This document shows, piece after piece, positions 14,730 to 52,197 of a stretch of DNA of 64,000 bases. Origin of the DNA: Schizochytrium sp. TIO01 (Eukaryota > Protista > Bigyra: Labyrinthulomycetes); contig SMSO01000014.1 of assembly GCA_004764695.1 (NCBI GenBank), positions 429,648 through 493,647 on the forward strand. The letters are read 5' to 3'. Within the stretch, counting starts at the first letter, position 1. The number at the start of each line of letters is the position of its first letter. Under the pieces are notes generated by a model. The model ran no database searches and had not been told where the DNA came from. It was given only the letters and a program-made list of their open reading frames with translations. A program made the position numbers and the translations under genes.

Positions 14730-15574
14730 CTTAGCTTGCACACGGCTATCTTCTAGCCTCGCACACAGGATAATCTCCCCAGGATCCGAAGATCATGTAC
14801 GTTTGTGAGTTTTGCTGGCGTCACATCAAAATGGGTTGAACCTGACATTAACTATATTTAATCACTTATTCAATAAACCTTTTTCTCCCCTTTTTTCCTT
14901 TAAAATTCTTTCTTTATATACAAACCTATACTTTCAACGGTTAGGTGTGCAACCTGTATTTCTCCCCTAGGCCTACATAGACTTTTAATTAATTACATTC
15001 CTATACAAAATGGTTACTCATTGAGCTATCCATGGATTCGTCGAAAATCTCTCACCATTTTGTTTCGATAAAGGACTATATCCTCAACTCAATCAAAGTG
15101 GGTTTTGTATTAGATCCCTAACTTAAATATCCATGTCATTTTTTCGTTGCTGCAGCTTTTCTGTTTATTTATTATTATGAATTGAAATTTAGATTCAATT
15201 AAAAAGAAGCTTTCGAATTTTATTATATTACCTACAACCCTTAAGGTTCATCTAAGTCATATACGTAGTGCACAGGATGAATGTTTGAGCAATTAAGCAA
15301 GCGTGGTCTTGTTGCAGCTAATGAAAGAGCTTGCGCATCCACCCCTCACTAATTATATTATTACTGAATCTCATGTATTGAACCATTCGTTACGCGCCCA
15401 AGAAAAAAATGTTGGGGAAACTATAACGATAGATAAACGATAGCTCTTGTTTTTTTCATTATCCCATTTTTTATTTTACAAAACCCGTGAACATTGCAAC
15501 TTAGAGATGCTTTATCCCCCTGCTGATATGCTTGGCTTAGTCGATGAGGAAATGAGACTACAAACAATGTTTAG

Positions 15575-15850
15575 CTACCGTATCACACCAAGCCGAAGAA
15601 GAAGAAGAAGAAGAAGCACCACACTCCCACCGCAAAGAAGGAGATGGCCCACATTGCCGACAAGCTTAATCTCATGACAATTACCGACATGAAGCGCGCC
15701 AATAAAACAGAGCTGTACAAGGTGATGGACGAGCGCGCGCGCAACAAGGACAAGCACCTCGATATGATTGCTCATCTGAAGAAACTACAGAAAGAGGCAA
15801 AGCGTTTGGACGCCCTCAAGAAGCAGATGAAGGCACAACTTAAGATGTAA
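15575..15850 (+). CDS. Small very basic protein or fragment (virus-like orphan)
   Basis: ORF 15644-15850. The frame is open upstream to 15575 (LPYHTKPKKKKKKHHTPTAKKE) without ATG; Lys-rich helical C-terminus. Confidence 0.45.
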   Translation, partial: LPYHTKPKKKKKKKHHTPTAKKEMAHIADKLNLMTITDMKRANKTELYKVMDERARNKDKHLDMIAHLKKLQKEAKRLDALKKQMKAQLKM

Positions 15851-15925: not shown

Positions 15926-16625
15926 TTAATTCATCATTCCAAAACCCTTTGTCATAATCCAAGAGCGCTCTTTCGAAGAATATTGCCTGTGCACCCTAAA
16001 GATCAATGTGCGATCGATCATTCATCCCCCGCAGAATCCACAGGCAGGGGTTCGCCGTCTGCGGCAGTCAGACGAACGCAGAGCGCACGAATGGTTTTCG
16101 GATTCCGCTGGCCACTTTGCGTCGAAGGGTGAGGAGAAAGAGAGGAAACCACGCACGCAGAGCTTGTTGGAACAGCCACGATGTGGCCAAAAAGCTGGTT
16201 GGTGGCCGCGTCCGCTCCGGCAATGATTACCTCCGACTTGAGCTCGCCCAGGTCTAGGCCTACTACACCGCCCACGGCGTCGCAAGGAATGTGCGCGTGG
16301 ACCAGAGAGAGAGAGCCCTGTGATGTTCGTTATGAGCGAGGGCAAGGAAACCATGCATTCAGTCAAAGGCACGGGGCCAACGAGACTTGTCACGATTGGC
16401 GCTGCACACTACGATTGTTTGGTAGTAATCGTTTATCTGGGAATTGGTTCCAGATGTCCCAGATTGCAAAAGGTCAAATTTTTGCTGGTGATACCTTGCA
16501 TCATAAAGCTTCCGCGAGGCATTCAGATTGACTCCTAACTCAGGACTAATCGTGTCATGAGCTCTGCTCTCTCTATCTAATTGATCAAGTCTGTTCTGGA
16601 TATTGTTTCGCAATGAGTTAGACAT
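15926..16625 (-). pseudogene. Single-jelly-roll penton/minor-capsid-like protein, frameshifted
   Basis: Joining three track ORFs gives ATG16625...TIVVCSANRDKSRWP / (shift ~16365-16376) LTECMVSLPSLITNITGLS / (shift in (CT)6 at 16304-16315) LVHAHIP...VVGLDLGEL...LFGHI...NPKTIRALCVRLTAADGEPL...GDE* then TLIFRVH in another frame. This follows the motif order I recall for giant-virus penton-type proteins (IDSRDRD-YP-LP-KNV-L-SAEIP ... YLxIDEL ... FAKI ... L-KL-I-F-DG). Confidence 0.68.
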
Positions 16626-16803
16626 CAACTACTTTTTATTTGATACTATTATATCAAGTAGCCTTAGATTTTTATTGGATGCTTAAAAACTCTTACCACC
16701 CGAATCGCGAAAATTCGAGGCAGCGCAGGAACAAGCAAAACAGCAATCCCAGAGCGGTGCTTCACCGGACCGACAGACACAAACACAGGGAAACAGAAGG
16801 CCT

Positions 16804-17271
16804 ATGAAGCGAAGTCGCACCGTGCTCGCTCTTTTAGAATTGTTTGGCCTTGGTAGCATTGGAGCGGACCGCTTTTATATGGGTTCTTACAAACTTGGTG
16901 CACTCAAAATAGCACTGCTTATTCTAGGAATTCTTGCGGGCGTCTTTCTCCTTGGACCCCTTGCATTAGGATTTTTCGTTGCTTATTTTATCTTCGTCAC
17001 CTGGGACTCATTTATCAAGGGCCTGACACCAATCGAGTTTTGGTTACATGCCAAGCCATCTCGCATCAATTTGATAGACACATCATGTAAAACAAGTGTG
17101 ACGGGTGATCAACAGCGACGTCTCGTGAAGACTTTTGAGAGAATTGTTGTGAACGACGCTGGCTCAGGTTCACGTATTGTACAAAATATGACCAACGGTC
17201 AGGTTGTTAGTTTCCAGTATGGTGAAGATGGTCTCGATGGGACGTATATGAGAACATTTGATGAATTATAG
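16804..17271 (+). CDS. Chimeric ORF: TM2 domain fused to an RNA polymerase largest-subunit (Rpb1/beta') bridge-helix fragment
   Basis: Residues ~1-68 are TM2-like (ALLELFGLGSIGADRFYMG). From ~17008: SFIKGLTPIEFWLHAKPSRINLIDTSCKTSVTGDQQRRLVKTFE...VVSFQYGEDGLD, versus Rpb1 consensus [40 protein letters not shown]...QFxYGEDG. Confidence 0.85.
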   Translation: MKRSRTVLALLELFGLGSIGADRFYMGSYKLGALKIALLILGILAGVFLLGPLALGFFVAYFIFVTWDSFIKGLTPIEFWLHAKPSRINLIDTSCKTSVTGDQQRRLVKTFERIVVNDAGSGSRIVQNMTNGQVVSFQYGEDGLDGTYMRTFDEL

Positions 17272-17497
17272 AAACCTAGATGACATCAAAACGGCTCTAT
17301 TGATTTACCTGGGAGGGTATATCTTCCACAATTTGGGCTTGCGAGAAAAACTATCATGGGCTCTTATATCGTATATTTGGAAACGCCAGTATCATGCATT
17401 GAAATAAACCAAGACGCTTGGCATATCTTTTGAAATTGTAAACCCTGATAGTGAGTGTAGTGATGACGACCTATTAGAAAGATATATTGTCTTCTAA
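17261..17497 (+). pseudogene. Small orphan hydrophobic protein with one internal TAA
   Basis: Manual translation: MNYRNLDDIKTALLIYLGGYIFHNLGLREKLSWALISYIWKRQYHALK*(17405)TKTLGISFEIVNPDSECSDDDLLERYIVF*. It fills the gap between neighbouring virus-like ORFs. Confidence 0.4.
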
Positions 17498-17535
17498 CTT
17501 TTACTTTAAAAAGAAAATAAGTCAACACACCATTC

Positions 17536-18003
17536 ATGAGTTTGGAAGACATTATTGATCGATTGGATACAAAACTGCTCGTCCGTTATGTAACTTATGA
17601 TGACCCCCTTGCCTACCATAATGTGTATAGTCTTGTAAGGAAAAAACTTCGAAGAAATAACCAGTTTCATAGAGACCCGAATTATTATTATATTTTCTTG
17701 CATTTTGTAACTGACTTTTTAAGAGCATGTCCCCAGTATGAAGGTTTATTTCAGAATATTTTGATTGATTTCATACGACTTACTTCTCGTCAGAAAGATC
17801 ATTCTCATTATAATCACACTCGGGATATGGCATATTACGTACGGTTTCCAGAGCTGTTTTTCCCGTCTATCAAATATAGCAAGTGTGCGGAAAGAATATT
17901 GATCTTACAAAATATGGTTATGCAGAATAATGCCACTGATAAGCTTCATCATGAAGTCTGGTCTACATTTCTAGTAACTAAACCTCTATACGAATATTGT
18001 TAG
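17536..18003 (+). CDS. Hypothetical protein (virus-like orphan, 155 aa)
   Basis: Intact AT-rich intronless ORF preceded by an A-rich spacer; 30 bp from the next ORF. Confidence 0.6.
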   Translation: MSLEDIIDRLDTKLLVRYVTYDDPLAYHNVYSLVRKKLRRNNQFHRDPNYYYIFLHFVTDFLRACPQYEGLFQNILIDFIRLTSRQKDHSHYNHTRDMAYYVRFPELFFPSIKYSKCAERILILQNMVMQNNATDKLHHEVWSTFLVTKPLYEYC

Positions 18004-18033
18004 ATGGACAGTATTGCATAATGATACAAAAGT

Positions 18034-18723
18034 ATGGGTTTCGATAGTCGAATGGATTTGGAGTTTGGCAACCTCAAGTTTAGTCGAGGTGTTGAAAAGT
18101 TACGCAAGGTTCTAAATGCGCACTATCGGAACATTAAAAGGTTTTCTATATTTTTTGTATGTGTCCTACTGAGCGTATCGATCAAGTTGGCTTCAATGAA
18201 TGTGAACTATGTTGCAAGTACAGTTGATTCTATGGGAGAGGCTATTACTCTTTCTGAACCAACTTACACCCCATTCCATTTGACAACTGAACTAGTCGCC
18301 ACACCCGTCGAGGGTACACAGCAATTTCCCATCAAACCAAGTGCGATGAATCAGAAGATACAAACACTCAATCTAGTTGCTGCGATCTCAAGTGTAGAGA
18401 CCTTTTTGGAAAACACAGGCTCTAGGTGCATTCATCTTAAATACTTTGGTGTACCTTATGATCTTATTGTGTTCAAGCATAACCATGCACTTGATGAAGC
18501 AAGTACGTCACCGTATGACATCATTGTTAATCCCGAAGTTCGCGAAGTTTCTGCAACTTTGCATAGGCGTCAAGTAGAAAATATTTATGGAGAAATGGAA
18601 TATATCAAGCTACCGAGTTACCTAATCATGGATTATAAGGACGCTGACTTGGAGAGTCAATATGGTAAAAAGTTCACTGACGAACTAGGTTATTGCATTT
18701 GGTATTATCTTCGTAAAACTTGA
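18034..18723 (+). CDS. Membrane-anchored inactive peptide-deformylase-fold protein
   Basis: TM (FSIFFVCVLLSVSI), then PDF-like order: CIHLKYFGVPYDLIVF (~GLAAPQIGV.RIIVI), IIVNPEV (~LINPEI), LPSYLIMDYKDAD (~RP..I.V.Y.D.DG), ELGYCIWYYL (~LARCIQHEIDHL). EGCLS and HExxH are absent. Confidence 0.62.
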   Translation: MGFDSRMDLEFGNLKFSRGVEKLRKVLNAHYRNIKRFSIFFVCVLLSVSIKLASMNVNYVASTVDSMGEAITLSEPTYTPFHLTTELVATPVEGTQQFPIKPSAMNQKIQTLNLVAAISSVETFLENTGSRCIHLKYFGVPYDLIVFKHNHALDEASTSPYDIIVNPEVREVSATLHRRQVENIYGEMEYIKLPSYLIMDYKDADLESQYGKKFTDELGYCIWYYLRKT

Positions 18724-18731
18724 AAGAAAAC

Positions 18732-20942
18732 TTAATCGATTTGAAATAGAGAATGAAGTTCAGCCATCTCTACCGCATAAGGGTCAGTGGTGTTGTATTG
18801 TGAAACGATATACATATTATCTTGTTGTGATCGCTTGACTGCACCCGTCGCACCTCCACTAATTTGGCGTTCTTTTGCCTCTTTATATGGAATGGGTGCG
18901 AATGAAGCAGAACCAAAATCGATCAGAAAAACCTTGACGGACTCCGAATCATTTGTTTGATTTTCAAGGAGAGCAAAGTTTGCAAGACGAATATCACCAT
19001 GCAAAACACCCAACTTATGTACAGCCTTTAGGCTCTTGACACAAGCAGCCAGCAGTCCAGGAAGACTCAGTGTTCTACTATCAAGTTTATCTAGACTTGT
19101 ACCACACTTGGCAGTTGCAATCATGACCCGAGAGAGGGTGAACTCACCCCCAAAGATCATAAAGGGTACGTGGATACCTTGAAGTTCTCGCAAAGGTCCA
19201 GTGTACATACTAATCTCAGTAGAAAATGATTCTTCCGCGAACTCGCGATATTTCTTGCGAATAGTGGACCTCCTGAACTTAACAAAAAGGTCCAAACCAT
19301 CCTCCCACTTTACACTTGATGTAATTGCAATCTCTGACGAGGATATAAGGGTCCAAGATGGATCCCATGGGAAGGGAAGCATCATGTCCTGCACCGAGAG
19401 AGGAAGCTGGCGAGATAGATTGTTCCGAGCTTGGTTCACTTCGGAGTCTCCATCTGAGACATCGTTGGCTTCAAATATTGCAGACAGAATTGTTTCTCGA
19501 GCTGCTTGGTTACATGCACCTCCTTCACTGCACCATGTGTCTCTAATGAACATGTAAGTTCTTGATCTTATAGAGAGGGGTATCCTTGTGGTCCCTCTTC
19601 TAATATAGGAACCAAGAGCTTCAAGAAGAAAAGCGTAGAGAACAGACATTGTTGACATTGGTCCAGATGTGTGTGCTTGAAATGCATCGCTTACATAGAG
19701 CTTAGCATTTTCATCGAGTTTGCAGAAATAAGTAAATTCGAAGGTGGTCAAAATGCCAAATTCGTTATTCGTGGCAATCATGTATCCGACGAGCTGAGCT
19801 ACAGAATTGATCAATCCACTATCTCCTGCCGGTAGTTGTATGTCAACGGAGCGCTCCTCAACAGGTTCATGTAGTAGTAGATCCGTTTCTATCCGTAATG
19901 GTGGGTCCTGATTTCCGTTAATGACTTCTAAAGGAGCATTACCTATACCGTAATACGACTGAAAGAAATCAGGCGGCCCGAAAGGAAGTTGAGTACCATT
20001 TCCATCAGACCTTTGATTGTTTGAGAGAATTCTCAAAGGGGCCTTGACTTCAACTGGACAAAAGCAGCATTGGTTGGTATTATTGATATTGTTGAAAAGA
20101 CAAGCAATATCAACCGATGTACCGATAGCAGTACCAAATTGCATATACCATGACAAATTGTCAACATCCAGATTTCGGTTCGACAACCGTATGATCGTCA
20201 TAGCGGTTTCGATAGCAAGCGAAAAATGACGACTTACGTGTTCCTTCATGAGACCTAACTCAAAATCTTGTAGTGGTAAGCCACATTGGGTCGATAAAAT
20301 AGTGATGTTTCTTGCAGCAAGCTCTTGAATCTTTTCTGCAACACGGACTTCATTATTGAAGTTTCTCCATCTAAGAACTTGAGATGGCCTGATGTTCCCC
20401 ACAAATCTACCTACTCTTGACCCCGTGGGATATACATTCCGTACATAGTTTTGGGTAAGAGGTCTTGCGAGGGCAACTTCTGCACGTGGAAATGCTCTAG
20501 ACTCAGCCGTATCCGCACGAGCCCTCTCTCTAGCTCTTTCCGCAGCCTCAGTGTCTGCACGAGCCCTTTCAGTGTCTGCACGAGCCCTCTCTCTAGCTCC
20601 TTCCGCAGCCTCTTGTAGTGTCTCAAGTGATATTACTGCAGATTGAAACGATTCATTCTCTCCATCATCATTTAACATTAAATCCAGGTTTGCGATAGCA
20701 TTATTAATAACTTCGTGATCTCCCAGCTGAGCAAGTACCTGGTACCGTCTAGGGCGTCTTATCCTACCCACCTGCCTCGCCTCATCGTTTGTCACAGGAT
20801 TGCCCTCTGCAAGTCTTCGGATTATAGTGACTATAGCATCAATTGATATAGATAAGTGTGGTGTGCGAGACCTTGTAGGGTTGGGCCCATCCTGCCTAGC
20901 TGTGCGGCCGCGCGTATCTCTGCTGCTGCTGCTGCTGCTCAT
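18732..20942 (-). CDS. Crinkler/CR-type effector: PD-(D/E)xK restriction-endonuclease-fold domain + C-terminal protein kinase
   Basis: SVDIA...PVEVKAP...VAQLVGYM...FGILTTFEFTYF (REase with QxxxY motif). Kinase: LFVK, E..MY, LQG..VP, HKLGVLHGDIRLANF, VFLIDFG. N-terminal helical region plus ARERARADTE coiled-coil repeats. Confidence 0.85.
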   Translation of the reverse strand: MSSSSSSRDTRGRTARQDGPNPTRSRTPHLSISIDAIVTIIRRLAEGNPVTNDEARQVGRIRRPRRYQVLAQLGDHEVINNAIANLDLMLNDDGENESFQSAVISLETLQEAAEGARERARADTERARADTEAAERARERARADTAESRAFPRAEVALARPLTQNYVRNVYPTGSRVGRFVGNIRPSQVLRWRNFNNEVRVAEKIQELAARNITILSTQCGLPLQDFELGLMKEHVSRHFSLAIETAMTIIRLSNRNLDVDNLSWYMQFGTAIGTSVDIACLFNNINNTNQCCFCPVEVKAPLRILSNNQRSDGNGTQLPFGPPDFFQSYYGIGNAPLEVINGNQDPPLRIETDLLLHEPVEERSVDIQLPAGDSGLINSVAQLVGYMIATNNEFGILTTFEFTYFCKLDENAKLYVSDAFQAHTSGPMSTMSVLYAFLLEALGSYIRRGTTRIPLSIRSRTYMFIRDTWCSEGGACNQAARETILSAIFEANDVSDGDSEVNQARNNLSRQLPLSVQDMMLPFPWDPSWTLISSSEIAITSSVKWEDGLDLFVKFRRSTIRKKYREFAEESFSTEISMYTGPLRELQGIHVPFMIFGGEFTLSRVMIATAKCGTSLDKLDSRTLSLPGLLAACVKSLKAVHKLGVLHGDIRLANFALLENQTNDSESVKVFLIDFGSASFAPIPYKEAKERQISGGATGAVKRSQQDNMYIVSQYNTTDPYAVEMAELHSLFQID

Positions 20943-21955: not shown

Positions 21956-24900
21956 ATGGGGGATTGCGACGACGATGGTTTGCTATGGGCAGCGTACGCT
22001 GGTCAACTAGGGCAGGTTCGTTAAATCATATCAAGGAGACCCGAACTGGTGAATCAAACAGACGATTATGGTACTACAGCGTTGATCCTATGCGCCGAAC
22101 AAGGGCATCTTCAAATTGCAGAATATCTACTTTGACACAATGCAGATCCAAACCACAAAGACCAAGGAGGGAAGACCGCCCTGCTAAAGGCGTCTAAACA
22201 TGATCATTTAAAGCTGGCGAAGTTGCTTTTAGAGCACCATGCAGATCCAAACCAAGAATACCAATACAATAACTCTGCCTTGATCAAAGCAGTGGGAAAT
22301 GGCAATACCGAATTGATCAAATTGCTCTTGCAGCGTCCAACGGCCAACTACAGCCACGACGAAAGAGATGACGCTTTGAGAAGTGCGTCTTCTCAAAACA
22401 ACCTTGAGCTGGTGAAGTTGATTTTGAAGTGCCATCCAAACTCAAGCGATGAGGCTCGTGGAGTCTCCTTGATATCGGCATCTAGGATCGGCAATCTTCA
22501 ATTAGCCACTGTGCTTCTTGAGCACCACGCTAACCTAAACAATTATGGCATGCATGGACATTCCGCCTTGATCGAAGCATCCAAAGCTGGCAACCTTCAA
22601 TTAGTGAAGCTACTCTTACAACGCGGCGCAGATGTAAACCAGCATTGTTCTTATGGACGTTCTGCCTTGATCGAAGCGTCTGAAGCTGGCAACGTTCAGT
22701 TAGTGAAGCTGCTCCTGCAACGCGGCGCAGATGTAAACCAGCATTGTAATTATGGACATTCTGCCTTGTTCAAAGCGTCTCGTTGCAGCAGACTCGAGGT
22801 AGCAAGAGTTCTTCTGGAGCACTCCGCAAATCCAAACTGTCGTGATACAAACGGGAGATCTGCCATTATAGAGCTATCTAGATACCGAGAAGTAAACCTG
22901 AAGTTAATAGAGTTACTTCTGCAGCACAATGCAGACCCAAACTATTTGGATGAAGACGGATACTCTGCTTTGATATGGGCGACCCAACGTAGCAACCTCA
23001 GTTTGGCAAAACTGCTATTGAAGTATCATGCAGATCCAAACAAGGGAGTTTACATGTATCCCTTGCACATCAGTTGTGAGAGTGATGACCTTCAAATGGT
23101 AAGTCTTCTCTTGGAGAATCGTGCAGATCCAAATCTCAAATCTGGTGATGAAAGGACTGCTTTAATGATGCTGCGTGGATGGAGTAATTGTCTTGAAATC
23201 GCGAAATTACTTCTCGAGAACCATGCAGATCCAAACTACGAAGATAAATACGGAGAGACGGCCTTATTTGCAGCAATGCGTTCTTGCAGGCCCGAAGTGG
23301 CAGACTTGCTCTTAAAGAACTATCCAAACATGAATCACCAATCCCATCGCGGAGTGACGGCCTTGATGGTTGCGTGTGAAGAAAGTAACCATGGCGCTAT
23401 AACGGTTTTACTTGAAAATGGAGCTGATCCAAATATATGCACTAAGTTCACTTCTCCTCTGAGGGCACTTCTGAGATGCTCCTACTATAACACTTTCCTA
23501 TTGGTAAAGAGCCTTGTCGAATATGGCGCAGATATTAATTGGAGGAATCAAGATGGAGAGAGTTTGCTGATGTTGATAAGCACTGGGGAAACTGACCTAG
23601 TACACTTTCTACTCGAGAATGGTGCAGACCCAAGTGATCATGCTACCCTATTGAAAAACGCCTGCCAAGAAAATAACCTTGAATTGGTGAAAACCCTACT
23701 CTGGAGCTACTCAGTAGACCCAAACGAAACTAAAAAAGATGGGGAAAGATTTTATTCTGCTCTATATTATGCATGCGAACGCAGAAACCCCGAAATAGTA
23801 GAACTCCTACTAAAGCAAGGGGCAAATCCCCAATTAATATCTCGGCGACAGGAAACCCTCTTGATGTTTGCGTGTCGAAGAGGATATGTTGACATAGTAA
23901 AATTGCTTCTCGAGTATGGTGCAGATCCAAATGTTCTAGACATGGACGGAGCGAGTGTATTGATGTACTCTGCATCACTTCAGGACTCTACATTAATGAG
24001 TCTTTTACTTAAGTATGGTGGCAACCCTACGTTGCGTGACAAAAAGAAGAGGTCTGTTTTGATGCACTATCTATATTGGACTAATCCAAAGATACTTGAA
24101 CTCCTCCTCGAGCATGGCGCTGACCCAAACGAACACTGCGGAGACTCGAACATATCTAGTTCTGGGCCAATTCTGAATATGCTATGTAAACAGCGTTACT
24201 ATGAGTGGGCGGAACGTCAATTAAGGGTACAAGCGTGAGCATCCATTGGACCGAGGGCAAGATGGGAAGCCAATCCTCATGAACGAATACCAGCACTCTC
24301 ATTTAGAATCACTCAAAATTCTTCTTAGACACGGAGCAAACCCAAACTCACGTGATGAAGGTAGAGAGACGGTTCTCAACACTGCGTGTAAGCAATGCCC
24401 TACCGAGTGGGTAAGGGTATTACTGGAAAATGGCGCAGACCCAAATCATAGAAATCAGTTTGGTTGCATAGCCCTAATGACTGTATATTGCAGAGGCTTC
24501 TTCAATTCTAGACAAGAATTTGTTTGTCAGGAAGGCCATCTTGAGTTAGCTGCATTACTTCTCGAGCACGGCGCATGTGTCAGAATTAGTGACAACCGCC
24601 ATAAAACTGCGCTAGATTATGCCAGGAATGCTGGAGTTCCGGAGTTACTGGAGTTTTTCTCGAATGGTGATGTTTCCAAGTATCTTCAGGAGGAGCTCGA
24701 ACTCCCTCAAAGTGTTGTGGTACAATTTTATCTAAATAAAATTGTTACTTTTGAGGACTGCTGCCTTGTCACTGAAGATAAGCTTGTCAAGATGGGCATA
24801 GTTCGAGGTTTTGATCGAAGGAAGTTTCTGAAGAGGTTTTACAAGGAGCCTCCGGCAGCAAAGCTTCCACGGGTATATGAGTTCGATCGCCCGCCGTGTT

Positions 24901-25374
24901 TCAACTACACGATCTCGACGATCTCTGCGCTGCTATGATGCCTTCTTAACGCATGAGTGGGGTTCAGACGGTCTTCCCACTCACAGCATTGTCTCTGTAT
25001 TAAACACAAAGCTGGTAGAGGCAGGTCTTACGACCTGGTTTGATGGTGAGCGCGTTTCTGGTAACATTGCGCAACAGGTAAGTGAAGGCGTGCAAAAGTC
25101 CAAGAAAATCATTGTGTGTGTCACACGCCGGTACATGGAAAAACTCCAGAGCAATAATGCGGACTGGTGCAAAGATGAATTCTTGGCGGCAACTCGTGTG
25201 CACAATGGCGTTGAAAACATGATCCCCCTAGTGCTGGAGCCAGAGATGCTAATAGCTAATTCCTGGAGAGGCCCACTACAACTACACCTTGGTGGGCATC
25301 TCTATATTGACTTTTCAACAGAGGAACATCGCGAGGCAAATTTTCAAGAGCTGTTAAATCGAATAAGGTCATGA
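21956..25374 (+). pseudogene. Ankyrin-repeat - SAM - TIR protein (~1,140 codons if repaired), disrupted in this assembly
   Basis: ATG 21956 is in frame with ORF 22223 but has TAA 22022 and TGA 22133 inside clear ankyrin repeats. More than 20 ANK repeats; +1 shift near 24223-24227; SAM at ~24666-24839 (DVSKYLQEELEL...EDKLVKMGIVRGFDRRKFLK); +1 shift probably at 24871-24873; TIR (YDAFLTHEWG, WFD, SKKIIVCVTRRY, WCKDEF, IPLVLE, LYIDFS). Confidence 0.85.
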
Positions 25375-36569: not shown

Positions 36570-38555
36570 TTAGGAGATATCCACTTTGCCGTTCCGAAGC
36601 ATACGCTTCTTCTTCTTCTTGCCGTCCACACGCGGATTGTAGTCTTCCTCCATAAACTTTTTGCCCACCGCAATGTGCTTGACACGGGGCTTCTGCTTTT
36701 TGCTGTGTTTTTTAATAATCAGTTTCAAATGAAGTCATGTTAGTTATACCATGCGCTTAATATCTCAATATACCCCCCTCCCTTTTTCCAGCCATTACAC
36801 GAGTTTGGTTTTCCGCAATAAACTTTAAACAAGATTTTGTCCGCCTGGGAACCCCTTCAGGTGTCCTCTAACCACTGAAGAAATAATCTCTCTTGACAGT
36901 CTTCGTTTTGAGGGAGCTAGACATTCAGGCTTTGAAAAAGAACAACAATAAAACATCACACCAGCAGAGGTATCGATTTGAATGAACCTTCCTGTTCTCT
37001 CATGTTCTTCCCTTTAATTTTGAGCTGTCAGCAATTCACTTCGTTTCATAGGATAAATCAAACGAAAGATGGTGTTTTGTGATTGATTCTCGTCACCCAG
37101 ATCAAAATTAAAAGAGAACACAAAAGCAAATTAGACTCTTCCAATCGAAGAAGAACACTCCAGTGTTTATGTATATTTGCGTACTCTCCTCTGCATGTGT
37201 GATGTCATACACGTATGACATACACAGATAGCCTAGTAGTTATGTTCCTAGTTGCTCATGCAGAACACTCGCTCTCATCTCTTTCCTTAAATGTTAATCT
37301 CCACAAGGTAAGACGATATCCCATAACCTAAAATTACCAGATAAACTGGTGGCGGTTGTTGAGAAATTTGGAAAAGCGTCCTCATGATCAAGAGATAACC
37401 CCACCTCCACACACTAAACAAAATCAATAAAACGTACGCAAGACGGCGAGAAGACTCGCCAATATCCATCATGTTGCGCTGGTGCATGCTCTGGTAACGT
37501 TCAAAAACCAGATCGCTGTGAGGCTTCATCTCACGCAATGTTCCCTTCAAGTCAGAGGGAAGCACCGCTTCTACTCGCGGAACATACTTGTGAACACGGC
37601 CGTTAATCTTGGGTGCCGGTTCCTCAAGAGCCTTCTCCGCAAGCAGTTTTTCTTTATCTGCGATCCGTTGTTTTTCCTGCTCCTCAAGCTCGTCAACGTT
37701 TGCGACTACTTCGTGGAGACGATCGAAAGTTTCTTTAAGATTGAGTTTGGCAATCTTTGCGTATCGAAGAGCCTCGTTTTCCTTAAACCTCTTCAGGCGG
37801 TTGCGCTCCCTGCGAGTGACGCGGTCGCCATCCTCGCGTTTGCTCTTCTTAGTTGTGCGCTCCCTCTTGGAGCCAACCTCGCCATCTTTTGTTTCCTCCT
37901 CTTCGTCGCTGCTGGACTCGTCATCGCTCTCGCTAGCCTCTAGCTGACCAAATGACAGTCCAAGTTTCCTCGCGTTTACGCGGCGCTCCATGCTTTCTTC
38001 AAAGCCCGCTGGTTTTGTGTAATTGTTAAGAGATTCTTCGTATGCAATAGCGTCGTCGACGCTCTTGCTCAGGCCTGCCTTGTACGCTTCCAGTTCAGGG
38101 TTGTAGGAGGCAGCATCCGAGATGACGCGGACCTTGGGCACAAGGCTAGACTTGGTGCTGCGTCCACGCATTGCCTGACGAGCCTTGCGTCCAATCTTGA
38201 CATCTTCTTCATCATCAGCCCAAAGGTCGGCAACGCTAGACGTCTGTTTCTTCGCAGAGGGTTTCTGCGAGCTTGAGGAGGACTTGGAAATGCGGTTAAG
38301 CAGCACCTCGTCAGTCTTGGAGACCTTCGGGTTAGCTTTGAGCTCAGCCTCGCGGCGCTCCTCTTCTTCACGGCGACGGCGAGCCTGAGTCTTACGATCG
38401 CCAACAGCAGCGGACTTCTCCTCAAAGTAAAGAAGCTCGTCAGGCTTTCCGACAGGTCCTGCAAAGGACGTGCGGAGCTCCGCGTCAAGAGCCTTGCCGG
38501 AATACTTGCTCTTGCGTTTGCGCGCGTGCGCCTTACCAATCTTGGGGCGACCCAT
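36570..38555 (-). CDS. NOP53: Ribosome biogenesis protein NOP53/GLTSCR2; two exons (38555-37438, 36702-36570), 416 aa
   Basis: DELLYFEEK, DLW, ASYNP, LPSDLKGTLREMKP, FERYQSMHQRNMMD motifs. GTACGT donor at 37437 and CAG acceptor ending 36703 join in frame to give the expected basic tail LAKKQKPRVKHIAVGKK...KKKKRMLRNGKVDIS*. Confidence 0.88.
37025..37100 (-). ncRNA. Intronic box C/D snoRNA, predicted guide for LSU rRNA 2'-O-methyl-A (yeast Am807 equivalent; snR39/snR59-like)
   Basis: C box GUGACGA (37096-37090), D box CUGA (37031-37028), terminal stem CUG/CAG extended by UAAUUUUGA/UCAAAAUUA. The 12-nt guide CACCAUCUUUCG (37074-37063) is complementary to conserved LSU CGAAAGAUGGUG and lies 1 nt upstream of D' UUGA. 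Confidence 0.8.
37289..37410 (-). ncRNA. Candidate intronic H/ACA-like snoRNA
   Basis: Two plausible hairpins (GUGG..CCAC; UAAUUUU..GAGAUUA), ACA 3 nt from the end, 122 nt. The hinge AGUUUA is not a canonical H box and I found no target. Confidence 0.35.
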
Positions 38556-39712
38556 GGCGGCTTGTCAAGATCAAGATCTGAAAGCCAATGAATCAGACCA
38601 GCCCGTCAGCGGCCAATCGCAGCGGCAGCTGCCGTTGCTTCCGCGCTCGAGGCTGAAGCGGCGGACTGGGTCCGCGAGGCGTCCGCTGCCGGTCTCTGGC
38701 AGCGTCGCGATGCAGAACTGCCTCAGACAGCGACCGCGTCCAACCAAAACGGATGGACCCAGCGGAATAGGAATTGAATGAGAGAGTGCTTTCAATAATA
38801 CATAATACAAATTCAAATTCTCTGCGGACCACCAAATTCAAATTCTGCGAATTCCCCATTCCATATGCTATGCTCAATATGGCGCCGAGAAGGAAAAACT
38901 TTTCACTCACAGCCAGGATAGTGCTCAATAGCTATAACTGTAGGAGCCAAGAATTGTTACTTCCAGACTTAGAATTCTGAAAACCGAGACATCGAAGCAA
39001 AAGAACTCGAGTTTATTGGTGCAGGCTGATACATCAGCAGCTAAAACGCAGCCCTGAAGCCACCCGAGAGCTATCCTAATGGTTTAGCCATTCAGAGAAG
39101 CCTTCGCAGAGTCGATGGCAATGGCTTGAGGTCGGTGATTCCCAAAAGTTTTCAAGAACTGCCTAGTGTGCTTGCTTACTCTAGAGTAGTACCTCTGTAG
39201 CAAGAAAGACCGATCTCTCTCCGCCAGTCACTTATTGATAGGAGAAGTATTTGCCGATTTCGTCTCTAGGACAATGGTCTAATTATCTACTCTGGCCTAT
39301 AGTGTGCTGTAGCCGCGGCTAGGGAAATTGCGGAAACCTCGAAAGAGCTCAGCAACCGTGGCTGGCTATGCGAGAAAAGGCTGCAAAAGCAGCAGAGGAT
39401 GTAGCTTCCTGCACGAAACCTTTGCTTCCTGCGCAGAGACCTTTCTGATTGAGCGCCACCCATCTTCAAAGGGTATGACTGGTCTGGAGATTTATCGCTG
39501 TTTTAGCAGTAAATTTAATACACGGGGTCTGATGCATGGAAGACATGGTGCGCAACCCATTTTGGGGTTGCACGGGGTCCAGAAATAGAGAGCAAGGCTG
39601 GGAGTAAATATCTTCATGTGGAATCGAAGCTAGACATCGTGGAGAAGGAAATGGGAAATAAACAAATGCTTTTGGGGCGAGAAGATTGACGCTTCGGCTG
39701 AAAAGGAGGATA

Positions 39713-42763: not shown

Positions 42764-45700
42764 CTAAGATGAGGCTCGATGGTATGCCTCAATAGGCAGT
42801 GCCTGGGCACGAATCAAGTCAGCATTTCGCATCAAAAACGGTACTAATTTTGCAAGAGGCTGTACCTGGCCGCCAAATGGGTCAGGGTAAACCGTGCATG
42901 CAGTCAGAGGACTCTGTTCGCTTCGACGACGTTGTGAAGCCACAGATGTATCAACCATGCACTGCGCCATATCATCCATATGGATCAACAAAGAGTGTAA
43001 GAGTCTACATAGCTCATCGTACACGCGTTGTGCGAGAGGAACACTAGCTTGTTTAGGGTCGCCAGGTGGGCGCACAAGACGCGAAACGCCTGAAAGTGAG
43101 AAACTTAAAGACTTTGACCGAAAATCTGGCGACATACGTCTGCGAGTAGCTGTCGATGCAGTTCTGGAGGTGGTTTCAAATCCATCTTCAGATGTTGTAA
43201 AGACGGACTCGTTACCATCACCAGCAACATCTAGTCGTTGACCTCCTGTGGAGCTTGCTATGAACGAAGCCGTGTCGGCTGACTGCCCTCCGTGGCTTTG
43301 CGAACTATCTTGCTGACCAGCTCGTTGGATTCCGGAAACTCCAGTAGAACCTAAGGAAGGCCCCAAAAACCTCGTAGGCCCAATAAACTCGCCCGTGCTT
43401 GCTAAATGTGGCATCGGCACGCAGCGAGAAAGCATCCGCATGTCACGATATGCAAGAGTATCTGCGAAAGCAATGCATTGGTCGCATGCTGACGCCATCG
43501 CCCAACCTACCGCAATCGTACTTTTTGCAACTGCATTAACTAACGTGGGGCTTACAGCAACCTGACCAGCAGCTGAGAAGAATAAATTCGTGCAACCTGT
43601 TGACTCATCTAAGATTCGATCAAGACCAGCTCCAGCATCAAATGCTGGGTGGGCTTGGGCCGCCCGACTTGTCAACTTTAACAGAGACAAGTGAGCATAG
43701 CGAAGTGCTTCGAGAAGTTCTTGCAATAGACTCGTAAATGGCACCATGGCTGTATGAATTGGGCGTGTAAGCTGACTAACTAACAACCGATCTCGCTTGA
43801 CGTCTTCGAGATTAACCTTGTTGAGCGAATCTAAGATTGAATTACTTAAATCATCCAGACTTCGAATAGTAGCCTTCCAATGGCTCACCAGCACAGCAGA
43901 GTCACGGCTCTCTAGCTCTAAAGAGTTCCACAGATGAGACCTTCTCTCTTTGAGCTGAATCCAGCGAGTTGCCCGAAGTAGCTCACGGTCACGGGTTACA
44001 GCAAACACAATAGCGTCTGCACGAAGCTCGTCGTCGGAAACCTGCCTACCTTCATGCACAGATTCTGTCAGAGTCTTTTGCCAAGCTTCCACCAGTAAAA
44101 TCTTCCAAAGGCATAGCTGCCTCACGAATTGCTAAGGCCAAAGCTACAATGGCAATTTGTACGGCACGATCACGTAGATGCATATCATCATCACTATCTA
44201 GTTCAGCAATTAGCACATCCCAAATTCTTATGGTGCACATTGCAGAAAAGGGTACTTGATCGACAAACAAAGAACGAAGCCATGTTCTCACAATCGGCCG
44301 ACTTGCTTCTAACAATGAGCTAGATAATGCAGGGCACATCTCCCTAACAATATCAAGAACAATTTGTGTGTCCACTTGAAGTGCCGCACTTCCAGAGATA
44401 CGAACAGGGCGGTCCATAGCCCGCTTTTGATCATCTCTCCCATGATCATTTGCGCCATCTGAATCGTCTGACTTATCAGCACTATTTTGTTTCTGCGCAT
44501 TATCTTGCTCAGGTAAAAAAATCCCCGCCTTCGACGAATTGTTCGTCAAAAATTGTGCCACAGAGGCCATTGAATCGGCTGCACTATGATATGCTCTAAA
44601 TGGACCTAGCAGAAGAACACGTAGCACCGTCAAAATTGTGTCATGGTTTTGTTGCGCTCCATATTGCATAGTGTCGATTAAAAAATCCGAAATTCGAACA
44701 AGCTCGACAGTAAGTGCGAGATTTGAAGACTCCGACGAAATAATTTCTAAAATATCACGAACTAGCTCAGAGTTTTCTAAAGATAAGTCTGAACCACAAA
44801 GCTTACGCAGAGCCAAGGATAACCAATCAGAAGTTTTGTAACAAGACATCAATGGTACAGCAAAACCTGGAGTTCTTGCACGTGGAAGTGCCTGACAGGC
44901 CCCCGGGTGTGTCTTGAGCCAACGCTGTGACGCACGTTGGCAGATCCCTTTCCAAATATTGGGGCGCAATTGTTTAGTGAGCCCAGCACGGGCTAGCTCC
45001 ACAAGTGATGGGCAAGGAAGGAGGTCTCTAGCAAGAACCATTCGCTCGAGACAAAGGCGCGACTCTTCAGCATGGCGCAAAGATATCATCTTGCGCGAGA
45101 ATTCTTCGAACTGTCCAGACACCGAGCGACGCTGTATGTTTGATACTCGTGCACTTCGCGATGTACTTTGAAGCAGTCGCAGCCATTCACGGTAGCGAGC
45201 ACCATGCGAAGCAGCACTTTCATTAGAGTCAAGGCGCTCGATAGCTAATAGATATCCCTTCTTCTCAGCAAGAGATGGGTGCATGATTCGAATCGCTAAG
45301 ATGTCATTGTAAGATCTGCTACTATCATGAGTTTTTGCAAGTGCTTCAAGCCAAGTACGCTCCTCGGGGCAGTTAACCGCGGGAGGCTCTTTTACTGGAA
45401 TGATAGAGCATCCGTTTTCGCCTAACCATAGCTCTCGCCGAAGGTTGTCAAGCGATGCATCTTTAAAAACCATCACACGCCCTGTCGAAAGAAGAAGCAC
45501 GTATCTGCGATTATAGTTAATTGTACCAGGCGACACAACCCATCCCGCTGCAATGACAGTTCCACGTGTCAGACATCGCTCGACACAGGTAAAAAACTTA
45601 TGAATATCTGCATTACAGTCGTCGCCTAGAGCAAGTCTCCATGACGGACGTCCTGGAGGGCCACAGAAGAAAAGCTTTACACTTCCTTGATGATAATAGG

Positions 45701-46433
45701 CATGGCGAGCAGAGCATAGACGCACATGATGATCAAGAACGGGGTCTGTGCGAAGTCTTCCAAAAACAAAAAAGCCTGCCACATCGTCCAAATTGAGAAA
45801 CCCACGTGGAGCTTCACCAACTTCCCTTGCCACCTCCCAATCTTTGGTGTCTTTATTTGTATCAGTTGTTTCTGCCCGCGACCTTACAAACTGACTACCA
45901 TTGAATTCTTCGTCTATGTAAGATCCATCATTACCATTGCTTGAAGTGCTATCATGCTCCATCATTCGGTGTTGTTGTCCTTCTCTGTTTTTGTTTTTGC
46001 TGTTGAGAAACGTATTTGATAATTCTGAATTCCGATCGCTATTTCCTTTCCCCAAATTGTTACTTCCGTCGTCGTTATTGGAACTCCCAGTGGTCCCCAA
46101 GTTGCCGCTTGAAGCCGCATTGCGATTCATAGATTTGGCGCTCGAAGAGTTTTCCGAAGTCGCTCTGGACCCAAGTTCTGTATCGTTGGATGTACGAAAT
46201 TGTGTTTGATTGCCGCTTGACTGGCGAGTTGCAGTTCCGCCCGAAGCAGCGTCAACAAAGCTGCTCACGACGGAAACTGCAGCAGCGGCTGCAGCAGCGG
46301 CAGCCATTGCAGCTTCTTCACCAGCGCCAGTCTCGAGGTACTCGAGTTTGTTGTCTCGCACACGGAAGCATCTCTTGCGCCATTTGCTTGACTCCTCGCT
46401 GGCTTTGAGCAACCAGCCCGTCCAAAAGATCAT
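42764..46433 (-). CDS. PH-domain protein with degenerate TBC/Rab-GAP-like region; one gene split by a +1 frameshift near 44052-44125
   Basis: N-terminal split PH (GWLLK..KWRKRCFRV), second PH (RRYVLL...EWLRLL), TBC-like GL...LRPNIW and WLRSLF...RIWDVL. The overlapping ORFs join as ...GGSLAKTLTESVHEG if one A of an A4 run is removed. Confidence 0.7.
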
Positions 46434-47258
46434 TGCCGCTGGCCAAACGAAGATTGAAGCCCGCGATCAAGCTTGATCTTGCTCGCAAAGGCGGCTGAGT
46501 TTGAGCTTTACTACGGTGGTATTTCCATTCACGATTTTTTTTTGACATAGAAATTTAATTAAAAAGTATCTTTTCCCATTTTATATGAAAGATCTATTTC
46601 GTGAAACAAATTAGGAAATTAATTATTACCTGCTAAATCTGCCATGGGCCTTATATCAGAACCATTGTTGATGAGATAACTGATGAATGTGAAAAAAGGA
46701 TGAATCTAGTCAGAAAGGTGAAAGCATGAGATCAATTTTGTGATGTTGAGAAAGGCATAGTAGGATAGGAAATCCAATGATTAGAACTGAAACTCACTCA
46801 AGAGCACAATGCATGCAAAGCATGAAGTAGTATTTGGAATGTGGAGAATTTTGTACACATTCAGATCTTGTCTTGTGGTATTTATTGTTCTTTACAGACT
46901 TCCTTGCTTGTACTTTACCTTGAGGGATTTCAAAACAGAGACTAGATCATCATGTACCACGGGGAGAGAATCAAGCACTTTTGAGTTAGTGCATTGGATT
47001 CAGACTATTGATTATAAAGACAATGAAGATTGTATTAGGTATTTAAACAAACAAAAAAAAAGAACCTGATTGAGAACTCTCGAAGGGTACAAAGGTTTTA
47101 CAAGGTGTTCCTCTCAAATGGAGTGAATATAGAGCTATTGAGAGAGTGTTCCAAAACACCAAAAATGTGGCGATTAAGTTTTCCTTTCCAAGGCAATGCA
47201 AATTGGAAAATGAAATCTGTAAGTTCATCTGTAAGGGGATAAGCATAAAGAAAACAAA

Positions 47259-50037
47259 TTACGCTTTGTTCTCCGGGCGATTCCACTGCACTTCCTGGGT
47301 CTCCATGTTTTCATAGTAGAGTTTGCCGGTTCGACGATCGCGATGTTCGATCCACTCCGAGTTGAACAAACGGGAACCCTTCGGCAGAGGGTAGCCTGCA
47401 CTATCTAACTGAGGACCGGGATCGCTCTTAACATCTTTAAGGAGCTGTGTGATTTCCCCAATCTTCTCAATTATTCTGCGATCTTGCTTATTTGAAGGAG
47501 CAGCACTTAGGTCTGGTGGTGGTGGCGGTGGCGGTTGTGTGAGTTCACCAATTACGCCAGAGGTCGTCTCTACGCTGCGTGTTGCAGTAGAAGCTCCTGC
47601 GCTTGTCTCAACAGCAGATGGGTCAAATTCACCGAGTGCTGCAGTAAAATGACCTCCACATGCCGCGACTGTGTAGCGGTAGCCATTAACACGTCTTGTG
47701 CTCATTGGCTTTCGTACAGAAATGAAATAGCCTGATGCAAGAGCACCACGCTCGTCATTACCCCACATCAATAATCGACCATCTTGACAAAGTCCAGCAG
47801 CATGCGTTGAGCTACAGGATACTTGGACTACATTCTCACCCTCAAGCGACTCGAGCAGTCGTGGGTCTACAATGTCTTCCTGCACACCATCAAATCCAAG
47901 AGGAGAGGCTGCTGTGCCCATTGTGTAGACAGACGTATCAATGCATTCTCCATCATCATACTTTGGAGCAGTCATTGAACTGAGAACCGTGTTCCGCCCA
48001 TGCATGTCTCCAACTACTATGATGGCCATATCGTTAGAAGCAGCGATATCAAGAATTGGGCGATCATGATCATCAAACTGATGCATACGAACAGGTACGA
48101 GAGATCCTGGCTCGGGGCCAATGCGGCCCCACATGAACATCTTCATCCCATTCTCTGTCACAGCAAGAGAGAACTTGTTGCCAGCGGCTACACGATCAAT
48201 CTTGTGCCCTTCCAAGCTATCTACAAGAGTTGGGACGTAGCGATTGTCCTGATCGCCTAGTCCAAGACGTCCATGGCGGCCTTTGCCCATCGTGTAAACA
48301 CTGTCACCTTGAGCAACAACGATAGTGTGGACAATACCACACGAAAGCGTCTTGACAGGCACACCATTTGCTGTACCAATATATTCCACTAAAGCAGGTT
48401 CCCGAGACTCTTTACGCGATAAACCAAGGCCCCAACTCTCCAGATGGGCCTTCACCCCACATGTAAAGATCTCCAGCGCTGCTCACAGCTCCAGCGTGCT
48501 CTTCGCCTATACTCACGCAAACAATGTTCACCTTGCGAAGAGCAGTCACCAGAAACGGGCGATTGCTGGAAGATTTGGTCTGAATTCCAAGCGGACCAGA
48601 GCCCCAAGTAAACAGCTGTCCATCTTTCTCAGAAATAGAAGCCACACAAGACTCACCGGCAACGAGAACCCTTGATTCAGTTTTCTTTTTCAAAGTTTGC
48701 ACATGATGGGGATTGGAAGTGAGAGTATCAACAAGGCCGGATCCAATACCTAATTGAAACAAAGAGTTGTCACCCCACGTATACACACGGCGCTCGTGAG
48801 AAAGGTTTGCAGATTTTTGACTTGTAGACCTCATACTCAAGCGCTGCCAGAGACCTCCCTGCACAGATGAATCAGATCTAGCGAGATTTGTTCCTGCACT
48901 AAACTTTTTACTCAAGTGCCCTCCTCGGAGCGAATTGATTGAAGCCGACATCGGCTTAGCATTGACGTCATCTTCCTCATCACTTGAAACAATAGTCATA
49001 TCCTCATCAACACCGAAGTAGTCTTCATCATCATCTTCCTCAAGGATGCCAATATCTTCATCATCCCCACCAACAACAGATCCGTTTGTCTTGAAGCCCA
49101 GTGGTGCTCCAAGCATATCCATTTGGCTCGCAGAAAGAGAGCGAAGTTCTTTAACAGAACTCTGAAATTTACGAGCGTCGTTCATGGTGAACCCAACTTG
49201 GCGAAAGAGTACCTTCATGTCATCCTCGCTCATGCGTTTAATCTTGTCGAAATCTTTAATGCCTGAATCGAGTACCACACCAGTCGCATACTTTTCAAGA
49301 GCGTGTTCGTGTAACCAAACACCGACCTTGACAGCGCCTTCATCCTGGAATATCCCTGCTTTACGAAGCGCTGTCACATGCAAAGACCACATCCACGCAG
49401 CGCGCTCAGTAGGTGTTGGTGCTGAGAGCTGCAATGTGTGACGATATGCTGCAGGTCCAGTCTCGACAATAAATGCGTTGTTCTTCCCCCAGCCCACTGT
49501 TGCGCTAGTATGGCGAATGACGGCATCCGCAGTAATCTCAAACATGCCTTTCGGCCGCTCTGTAGGGCTCGAAGGTTTGTTCTCGTAATACGCAAGCCGG
49601 CCATTGCGAAGTACGAAGAAACGATTTTTCCAATTGCGCTGACTAGACACAGCTCTTTTGGTGAGCCAACCACGTCTGCTTTCTGATTTGCGCTCCTTGC
49701 GAGCATATCTCGCTTCATCGATGGCCTTACGAAGAGACTTTTCCCAGTGTTTCTCGTTTTCTGCAGACTCTGCACGAAGAACCAGCACGTGGGGTCTCGC
49801 CACAAGCTCGAAAGTAAAGGATTTCGAGGATCTTGACGCCCTAACTACCGAGAAAGCAGACAACTCCACTACACCAAGAGGTCTTCTGGCAAGGCCATTT
49901 TCTATGGTCGGCTTGTCTTCGTAGTATGTTAAAAGTCCATCGCTGAGGACAAAGTACCTGCGCCTCCACGATTTGACGCGCTTCCCACAGAGCTTCTGCA
50001 GAAAGCCTTCCACGTTCGTCAGCATCATTGACGCCAT
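47259..50037 (-). CDS. PH-PH-SAM-RCC1 repeats-WW multidomain protein; split by a +1 frameshift at 48430-48433
   Basis: Two PH domains (GFLQK..WRRRYFVL; GWLTK..WKNRFFVL), SAM (VGVWLHEHALEKY...), RCC1 repeats (YTWGDNSLFQLG, GRHGRLGLGD), poly-Pro, WW (WIEHRDRRTGKLYYEN..TQEVQWNRP). Removing one G restores GELGLG. Confidence 0.85.
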
Positions 50038-52197
50038 TTTACGAACCCAGAGCAGATCAGATAGACTCTGCTCCAAACACCCCTGCCCAGTCGTGAGCAG
50101 GTACCCAAGAGCAATTGCTGCTTGCAATGGTCCACAAGCTTTGGCGTCTATGCATCAATTCTCTCCATTTTATTTTGAAGAAAACATATACATATATTTT
50201 TTCTTTTACAATAAGAAACAACTCCCTATATGGATAAATATACTTGCAATTATTTTATTTTTATTTTATTTTATTTTGAAATAAATACATACATATAACA
50301 TATCAAGGTTAACATTTTCATGTAATTTTTGTTTTCACTTTCTTTTTTCTTTTGAAAAAAAGTAGTCGTAGTTTTTTGTTGTTTTTTTCATTTTTACTCT
50401 CCATCCAAGTTCATTGAGATCCCCAAGCTCTGGCGCCAAGAAACCACGTGAACCCATCGCTGGCTGATCCAGCTGCTGGAAGCTGTTTGTAACATGAGCT
50501 TTCTGCCCAGTGAGACCAGCTAAGTGCAAGGAGCAGTAGAAAGAAGAAGTTGCAGATCATCACGATCGACACGTCGTGTACGTCGAGCATTTTTATTTTT
50601 ATTTCCTAATTTCTCCTTTAGCTGTGCAGTCATAACTTATATCCCTTTCATTTTCTTCGTTCTCAGGACGTAGGAAATACCATTACGTGGACTTACGAAC
50701 TTGACAAAAGTTGCTTTGTTTCGTAACAACATAAAAAGAGCTTGTTTGATTCAGTATTTGTTCGCTCATTTTATTGCTTTTGCCTCGGCTCGAAGCTCTG
50801 ACGACGGCTGGCATGGGTGAAGAAATACCAATCCGCCCAGGAGTTCTTGAATGGCTCAATTTGAAGCAAGAACCTCAAGGTCATTTTCAAAGCCATCCAT
50901 CCCTTCGCCAAAGTCGCAGAGATTCTTTCCTTTTGTTTTATTTTATTATATTCATTTACTTTACAATTTTTTTTAAAAGAACCTCATGGTAGTTGCCCAT
51001 AACGCGGCAGGTGTGTACTGTGCTCAGACGTGTATAAGGCCCCTTGGGATAATATGCATTGCGAGTTAGCGTGTATCAGGCGGGGGGTACTCAGCAAGTA
51101 CTGGGAAATGGACTCGTGCAAAGAAAGCCCAAAAGAGGAAGATAGATGGACGCACGTGCGAAGAAGAAGAATCAAAATGGAAAAGAAAAAGGGCGTGAAT
51201 CAAGACCACCATGAACGCTGCAGCAGCGGGGACTGCATTGCAACACGCAAGACACAAGTGGTTCAAGAGGACATCCCGCACGCACAGGAAGAAGCTGCTC
51301 GCATACTAAAGACCATCATCTGACGCTCTCGCACGTCTTACCACCAGTTCAAGGTGAAACTTTTGAAAGGAAATATCATTGCTCCTTCAATATTTACTAT
51401 TCTATCAGATACTAGTAGCTAATTACTATTATGAAAGCACACTGGAGATGGCGCGCGTGCAGCTCCCATACTGCCATGTGCGTCGTTGGCTTCAGGCATT
51501 TATCTTTTATAAGGACTGATGACAGGGAAAGGTCACTACGCGTAGCAGCTGACAATAATCCTGGCGGTGCCAACCTACCTATGTAGGTAGTAAGTAGGTA
51601 TCAAATGGTTCGTCAGTGCAGCCTGGGGTGCTTGAGCGAACAACGGAGCTCGAAGTTAACATAAATGTGACCTTTCAGAACTGTGTCCCGTGTGTCGAGT
51701 CCGTCTTCCCCCCGTTGGGGTTAGTAGTTGAATTGTGACTCTGGAATACCTTTGGGCGCCCTAAAACCGCGCAGATAGCAAACTTCATCATGGTGAAACA
51801 ATCTATTGGCTAAAGTTGTTTTAATATATAATTATGAATAAAAAGCACGGAGGTTTACTTTTCTGTGGCCCTCAGCCGTGCTTCTGCAATACTTAGTATT
51901 AAACCATTAAAAATCGAACCCAGGAATTTTGTTTAACTTGAGTGTCTTTGCCTTTAAAAAATGGCTAAAATCTTTTGGATGAATACTTATATTGCGCAGA
52001 AACAATCAACATCGAAAGCCACCACCGCCACCGCAGAGAGGGGTATCCCTATTCGTAGAGTTTAAGATCACGGGCATTCATCTTGTCAAGCCCGAATTAC
52101 ATAATATTGCATTACCACTGTAGAGCTTTAGACATAGATAAGGACACAACGAATTATTTGTTTATATTTTTCCGTATATCAGAATTTGAACAAGATC

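Follow-up and report, generated by a model that had tools for sequence, protein, structure and literature searches.

The window, which is the whole 64,000-nucleotide stretch of Schizochytrium sp. TIO01 DNA analysed here, is a segment of intron-poor eukaryotic chromosome in which 40 scanned ORFs include an ABC transporter, a phosphatase, an Arf GTPase, an ankyrin-TIR protein, an MFS protein, a kinase, Nop53, TrmO, and RCC1. The phosphatase agrees at 982 of 987 residues with a transcriptome protein of a marine protist; the taxon number in that protein's header, 87120, belongs to a fungus, and we read it as a digit swap for 87102, Aurantiochytrium limacinum. The host is accordingly likely to be A. 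limacinum or a close relative. Several of its host genes extend over overlapping frames. Ankyrin repeats, SAM, and TIR follow one another over three such frames at 22136–25374 (plus strand), in an ankyrin-SAM-TIR gene that is spliced or broken, and on the minus strand host Nop53 (37287–38605), PH/TBC (42764–46466), and PH-RCC1-WW (47259–50154) genes are likewise interrupted by introns or frameshifts. An open frame of 1,587 residues, strongly A-skewed and matching no Pfam family, occupies 58586–63349 (plus strand); one copy of a 117-base direct repeat (46644–46760 and 59127–59243, 86% identical, 12.5 kb apart) lies within this long ORF. The locus of interest is a penton-like pseudogene on the minus strand and its neighbours, which we describe by the following features (window positions):

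15644..15850, plus strand: 68-residue ORF, tail to tail with the penton-like gene; GC3 0.71; no family
15926..16015, minus strand: tail piece of the penton-like pseudogene, in a different frame from the core
16018..16311, minus strand: core piece, 97 residues in a single frame, terminated by TGA at 16020–16018
16304..16315, minus strand: (CT)6 microsatellite, site of the second frame change
16316..16357, minus strand: piece 2, in the next frame after piece 1, with the LP..ITNI(TGL) motif
16359..16625, minus strand: piece 1, ATG at 16625, 88 codons, premature TGA at 16361–16359
16804..17005, plus strand: 5′ part of a TM2-domain gene (PF05154), head to head with the penton-like gene
17006..17271, plus strand: 3′ end of a half-gene, the first of the two that encode a split RNA polymerase large subunit (PF04998), corresponding to AurliV-2 ORF 794
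17536..18003, plus strand: intact ORF whose AurliV-2 orthologue, on comparison by eye, is ORF 795
18034..18723, plus strand: intact ORF, close orthologue of AurliV-2 ORF 948, with AurliV-1 ORF 35 more distant (by eye)
18732..20942, minus strand: kinase gene converging on the 18034 ORF, multi-copy in the runs compared

Piece 1 (GC 0.44) begins with an N-terminal extension of about 68 residues, followed by a first strand motif, VVCSANRD...WP, whose counterpart in the protein family described below is IDSRDRD...YP. In piece 2, LP..ITNI resembles the family's L...KN(V/I) stretch preceding strand D. The core piece (GC 0.60) contains the motifs HAHIP, LDLGEL, LFGHI, and IRALCVRL..ADGE and is predicted to form strands D to H, and the tail piece supplies the last predicted strand (TLIFRV) and the final stop, which ends at 15926. 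An earlier note, made from the letters of this DNA, had described the gene as three joined minus-strand ORFs. Six-frame translation bore out its motifs, their order, and their strand, together with the overall span of 15926..16625 and the TGA near the end, while the count is four pieces and three frame changes. The note's break in a short homopolymer was not upheld: the window has TTT, but at 16366 all four other runs (4/4) differ in the letter and show no indel. We also rejected an intron that would span the first two breaks, as splicing would delete a matching motif.

The stretch was found, whole or in part, in 20 of 24 listed sequencing runs (12 studies). Six of these 20 runs were mapped onto the window, and base-level differences at the gene were obtained from four. 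In run X3, a single contig of uniform depth extends from the host flank at 14600 through the gene to 16977; because it crosses from host DNA into the gene at single depth, the penton-like gene is integrated at the same chromosomal site in other strains. The premature stop at 16361 and the first frame change are present in all five alleles (the window and four runs). The CT tract, where the earlier note had correctly located a break, is one unit shorter, with five units, in two of the four other runs; three of the four have extra bases near the gene's 3′ end, and X3 alone among them has a further 10-base loss within the core. Nine of the 11 substitutions that distinguish the other runs from the window in the coding pieces are residue-changing. 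Because the contigs of four other runs share the early stop and carry lesions of their own, the penton-like locus is a polymorphic pseudogene rather than an assembly error, with the pattern of a gene without selection. What had been put forward as a hidden gene missed by ORF callers is a dead copy in the host chromosome, not a working gene, and it can no longer yield a capsid protein. None of the runs is listed as RNA; two that are guessed to be RNA cover the gene, one of them (X17) with a contig of 15910–16683 that leaves the left side uncovered. The penton region is also present in these genomes as a second copy, which has diverged and is shorter by about 370 bases between the points 16136–16181 and 16659–16700. 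Its joints occur in four of the six mapped runs (X1, X3, X15, and X17), X8 has a nearby end, and the copy runs into other sequence on either side.

To characterize the family to which the pseudogene was compared, we gathered candidate members with a motif, which returned 40 viral loci and at least 116 metagenome loci. All nine members tested match DUF5901 (PF19254), four of them above the curated cut-off. The family alignment has 46 rows, representing 27 distinct complete domains (120–300 residues) and three further proteins, with long members entered as two pieces flanking their insertion. An intact member was modelled with AlphaFold (pLDDT 86, pTM 0.84), and its best solved match in Foldseek was the PBCV-1 penton P1 (6NCL chain a6, E 7e-8; Z 15.1, rmsd 2.8, 146 aligned). 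P1v1 (8H2I; Z 13.6) came second, and after these two came an EhV-201 chain and then a Sputnik chain (Z 9.2) and the mavirus penton (Z 8.6). The BFVD matches of the same model are nucleocytovirus proteins, including H240R, and the family profile matches the P1 and P1v1 sequences with E values of 1e-13 and 3e-16. Passages of PMC6344570 describe P1 as an eight-stranded penton at the fivefold vertices of PBCV-1 that is known to form pentamers at capsid vertices, and a section of PMC9617893 describes P1v1 as a P1 variant with a large D-E insertion. By both sequence and fold, DUF5901-like proteins are clearly the P1/P1v1 penton family, a link that is possibly known already under other names; a literature search under the name DUF5901 found no paper. 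Two giant-virus members (L101:253-840 and L120:466-1053) are extended at the C terminus by about 60 residues that look helical.

When the four pieces are read through, with X at the breaks, the pseudogene aligns nearly without gaps and collinearly over about 125 positions of the family profile. Its end-to-end score, a measure that rewards collinearity, has a z of 9.25 and was equalled by none of 300 shuffles, nor by any of the 500 block shuffles at each of three block sizes (0/1500). The core alone, unjoined, scores end to end with a z of 7.4 (0/1000 shuffles) and ranks first of 176 window segments of at least 80 residues, in a test for which the model columns were chosen after the alignment had been seen and the family itself had been selected through a motif. 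The match is distant: on the end-to-end scale, true members, which are in the profile themselves, reach 100–214 versus 8 for the pseudogene. Local HMMER gave the read-through 5.3 bits, with one of 2,001 controls higher, and 4.3, 4.5, and 2.6 bits against three other profiles, scores that were reached by 4, 3, and at least 5 of the 2,001 controls. No separate piece came to the top of the HMMER window lists, single pieces gave hhalign probabilities below 1% against the family, and Pfam returned neither DUF5901 nor any other family for the pieces. A frameshift-aware comparison, as the earlier note had proposed, gave a mixed outcome: in a scan of both window strands (254 bins) that chose its own frameshifts, the locus ranked first at a penalty of -6 and second at -10, and fell outside the top six at -15. 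Folded alone from its single sequence, the core is predicted to be all-beta with six strands (pLDDT 44) and had no Foldseek match. Weak leads came from the ESM Atlas, namely a Nucleocytoviricota cluster (0.93) and a cluster (0.92) with V18-19, which we take to be the Sputnik penton, on 19% of its members, at a recognition of 2015 that is under the 2300 reliability mark.

Throughout the domain, the motifs of the pseudogene have the same order and spacing as those of PBCV-1 P1/P1v1 and the DUF5901-like proteins, and it shares the short D-E connection of P1. It differs from them in its very distant sequence, with SANRD...WP in place of DSRDRD...YP, in its roughly 68 extra N-terminal residues, in being broken, and in its position within a host chromosome, where no major capsid gene lies nearby. 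The earlier reading as a penton or minor-capsid jelly-roll protein is supported by this comparison, which identifies the matching family as that of P1/P1v1 by sequence and fold. We consider it highly probable that the pseudogene derives from a viral penton of some kind, and probable that this was a distant penton of the DUF5901-like/P1 family.

Searches for relatives of the core were largely blank. A word-indexed protein search, limited to longer proteins, found none. A phmmer search of 1.84 billion representatives gave three matches, none of them a true relative: one is the pseudogene's own piece from another assembly, and two are FG-GAP repeat proteins raised by summed repeat scores. Locus scans of viral and metagenome contigs returned no core relative, a locus scan with TM2 and a scan with a family member were both blank, and PDB sequences gave no match to the core. 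Five viral and 97 prokaryote-genome matches to the motif pattern were all judged to be chance. Among these searches there was no close intact relative of the pseudogene. These blanks carry little weight, because the 18034 ORF, which has orthologues in print, likewise escaped the word-indexed search.

The genes on either side of the pseudogene bear on its origin. The frame of the 68-residue ORF is open upstream through a lysine run (15561–15850, plus strand), and the nearest ATG is in another frame; this ORF is probably part of the insert and a second broken gene. On the other side, the TM2 piece is fused in frame to the polymerase piece, creating an open 155-residue chimeric ORF (16804–17271, plus strand). 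Other contigs contain longer forms of both parents, and because they depart from the window sequence in both directions at 17006 and 17008, with a different sequence past 17008, the fusion point lies at about 17006. The polymerase fragment includes the initial 66 positions of Rpb1 domain 5 and then ends, as do the first-half ORFs of AurliV-1 and AurliV-2. A short hydrophobic ORF at 17261–17500 (plus strand) overlaps the polymerase stop and is interrupted after 48 codons; it is possibly a third broken viral gene. The 18034 ORF agrees with AurliV-2 ORF 948 at about four residues in five over its full length, as estimated by eye. Language-model features suggest, as a lead, a membrane-anchored peptide-deformylase-like fold (0.82, all ten best named hits), and in the parts of the AurliV tables consulted (PMC12606086) its orthologues have no annotation. 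GC on this side is 0.35–0.43, compared with 0.60 in the penton core and a GC3 of 0.71 in the 68-residue ORF. Over 16656–19400, depth at 85% likeness is two- to eightfold that of the flank and loose ends are numerous, and because of this raised depth and these ends we conclude that several related mirusvirus and kinase scraps are present elsewhere in these genomes.

According to PMC12606086, AurliV-2 is an integrated Soporavirales mirusvirus of Aurantiochytrium limacinum. Its ORFs 794, 795, and 948 have the same order and strand as the genes at 17006–18723, and the gaps between the three are 255 and 31 bases in AurliV-2 and 264 and 30 bases in the window. In both, the RNA polymerase large subunit is split and a converging kinase comes next (ORF 95 in AurliV-2), although the kinases are only putative orthologues. 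AurliV-1 has ORF 35 behind its polymerase gene, and this protein is more distant from the 18034 ORF. Upstream of ORF 794, the same material places a DNA polymerase and two other ORFs, with no TM2 or penton. The window block differs from AurliV-2 in extending over only about 1.7 kb, in having its polymerase cut and fused to TM2, and in being diverged, hence not AurliV-2 itself. Judged by its sequence and gene order, 17006–18723 is a mirusvirus fragment of AurliV-2-like (Soporavirales) type. The penton-like gene had been called the strongest structural-gene evidence of viral origin; much clearer signs come from the neighbours at 17006–18723, which indicate a mirusvirus, a virus with another type of capsid. 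No HK97 capsid, portal, or terminase gene was recognised in the window by Pfam, and a 1.7-kb scrap need not include them.

The capsid of mirusviruses is of HK97 type, and literature from 2023 onward yielded no mirusvirus penton; the papers listed in further searches had nothing on this locus. An exact-word search for penton and TM2 over the first 400 letters of each cell in the tables for AurliV-1 and AurliV-2 found no such ORF, in a search that a distant orthologue would escape and that covered four of five HIP matches. Mirus_JellyRoll is likewise a jelly-roll protein in a mirusvirus setting. In PMC12768974 it is given in one row as 945 bases (about 315 residues), resembles a capsid protein of ssDNA viruses, and is scored absent from AurliV-1 and AurliV-2. 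On that row, its length and its structural neighbour, which is not a penton, set it apart from the pseudogene. Further sources cited here in part are PMC10132985, PMC10827195, and bioRxiv 2023.06.15.545109.

We lean, at somewhat better than even confidence, toward a penton gene that came from a nucleocytovirus, likely of the skiavirus type of thraustochytrids, and that is now dead and joined in the host chromosome to an AurliV-2-like mirusvirus piece. Two donors are favoured because GC and GC3 differ between the two sides, because AurliV-2 has no TM2 or penton upstream, and because skiaviruses are without RNAPL and co-occur with mirusviruses, whereas the N-terminal piece, at GC 0.44, counts against two donors in resembling the mirusvirus side; this lack of RNAPL and their co-occurrence with Soporavirales mirusviruses in thraustochytrids are described in parts of two reports (bioRxiv 10.64898/2026.07.28.741200 and 10.64898/2026.08.29.747986). 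A donor of skiavirus kind is likely by host range, because these are the known nucleocytoviruses of thraustochytrids, have no RNAPL, and occur beside Soporavirales. Skiavirales/Ariadnavirales (SmDNAV relatives) belong to the right host group and would need a penton for their capsid. The main texts of the two reports mention no penton, and their supplementary gene tables may name the family; the skiavirus hosts that the cited portions name do not include A. limacinum. By Pfam, neither a double-jelly-roll major capsid gene nor a packaging ATPase is present among the 40 window ORFs scanned, the donor genome itself lying outside the window.

Other explanations of the pieces themselves can be set against this one. 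If the motif match were due to chance, the pieces would be what is left of a gene for a different beta-rich protein. The low scores in HMMER and hhalign, the blank protein, locus, and pattern searches, and an Atlas recognition below its mark all fit such a view, but the collinear, near-gapless alignment that no shuffle equalled and the viral character of the neighbours argue against it, and we regard it as quite unlikely. A minor capsid gene left by a virophage or polinton-like virus that inserted here and lost its other genes would share the fold, given the Sputnik and mavirus matches to the family model, and would agree with the V18-19 cluster recognised by features. However, the 40 ORFs include neither an integrase nor a protein-primed polymerase, and neither a packaging ATPase nor a major capsid gene (although decay could have removed them), no inverted-repeat pair flanks the insert, and the motif layout is that of the P1-type family, without a large insertion; such an origin is very unlikely. 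That the gene is intact or recoded, its breaks being assembly errors or read through by the cell, is suggested by the position of two breaks in simple sequence and by runs X14 and X15, in which the frame changes are each +1 and the three sum to a full codon. The probability of this reading is close to negligible in view of an early stop kept in four of four independent runs, a CT length that varies and a 10-base loss in one strain, both incompatible with a recoded gene that still works, and substitutions that mostly change residues.

A different arrangement of the same genes would have the whole patch descend from one AurliV-2-like mirusvirus that had acquired a nucleocytovirus penton gene and TM2, with an internal deletion fusing TM2 to the polymerase. 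One insertion is simpler than two, and the penton gene is 380 bases from the mirusvirus block and packed densely, like viral genes; exchange of other genes among skiaviruses, Soporavirales, and their host is reported in 10.64898/2026.07.28.741200 and 10.64898/2026.08.29.747986. Against this, base composition differs between the penton side and the mirusvirus side, the searched part of the tables for AurliV-1 and AurliV-2 offers no penton or TM2 ORF by exact words, and mirusvirus capsids are HK97-type, with a jelly-roll protein of their own that is longer, ssDNA-capsid-like, and, in the excerpts cited above, scored absent from AurliV-1 and AurliV-2. A single mirusvirus is on these grounds unlikely. 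Were it correct, a Soporavirales mirusvirus (HK97, Duplodnaviria) would have carried a nucleocytovirus-type penton gene (Varidnaviria), and the patch would be the fossil of a hybrid genome, a proposal that we hold doubtful; capsid genes, not only replication genes, would then have crossed two realms in co-infected thraustochytrids.

Under the two-donor reading, the protein would have been present in five copies at each capsid vertex of the donor virus, as is PBCV-1 P1, to judge from its family. After insertion, function would have been lost, and decay would have proceeded by microsatellite slippage and small indels of the kind that the strain differences show. The TM2/RNA-polymerase fusion at about 17006 joins the penton side to the mirusvirus piece, and this join may have arisen by recombination of two separate viral scraps, whether within the host chromosome or inside a nucleus infected by both viruses.

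Decayed viral scraps are already known to be common in protist chromosomes, and mirusvirus pieces in Aurantiochytrium have been published. The patch is an ordinary viral fossil with one unusual pairing; what is new is a capsid gene of the giant-virus realm within the same 3-kb patch as a mirusvirus block. For the protein family, the comparison lets DUF5901-like proteins be read clearly as pentons of the P1/P1v1 kind. For the host lineage, the pseudogene is at the least a likely record of past nucleocytovirus infection and a probe for the skiavirus penton; at the most, it would record the transfer of a capsid gene between two realms.
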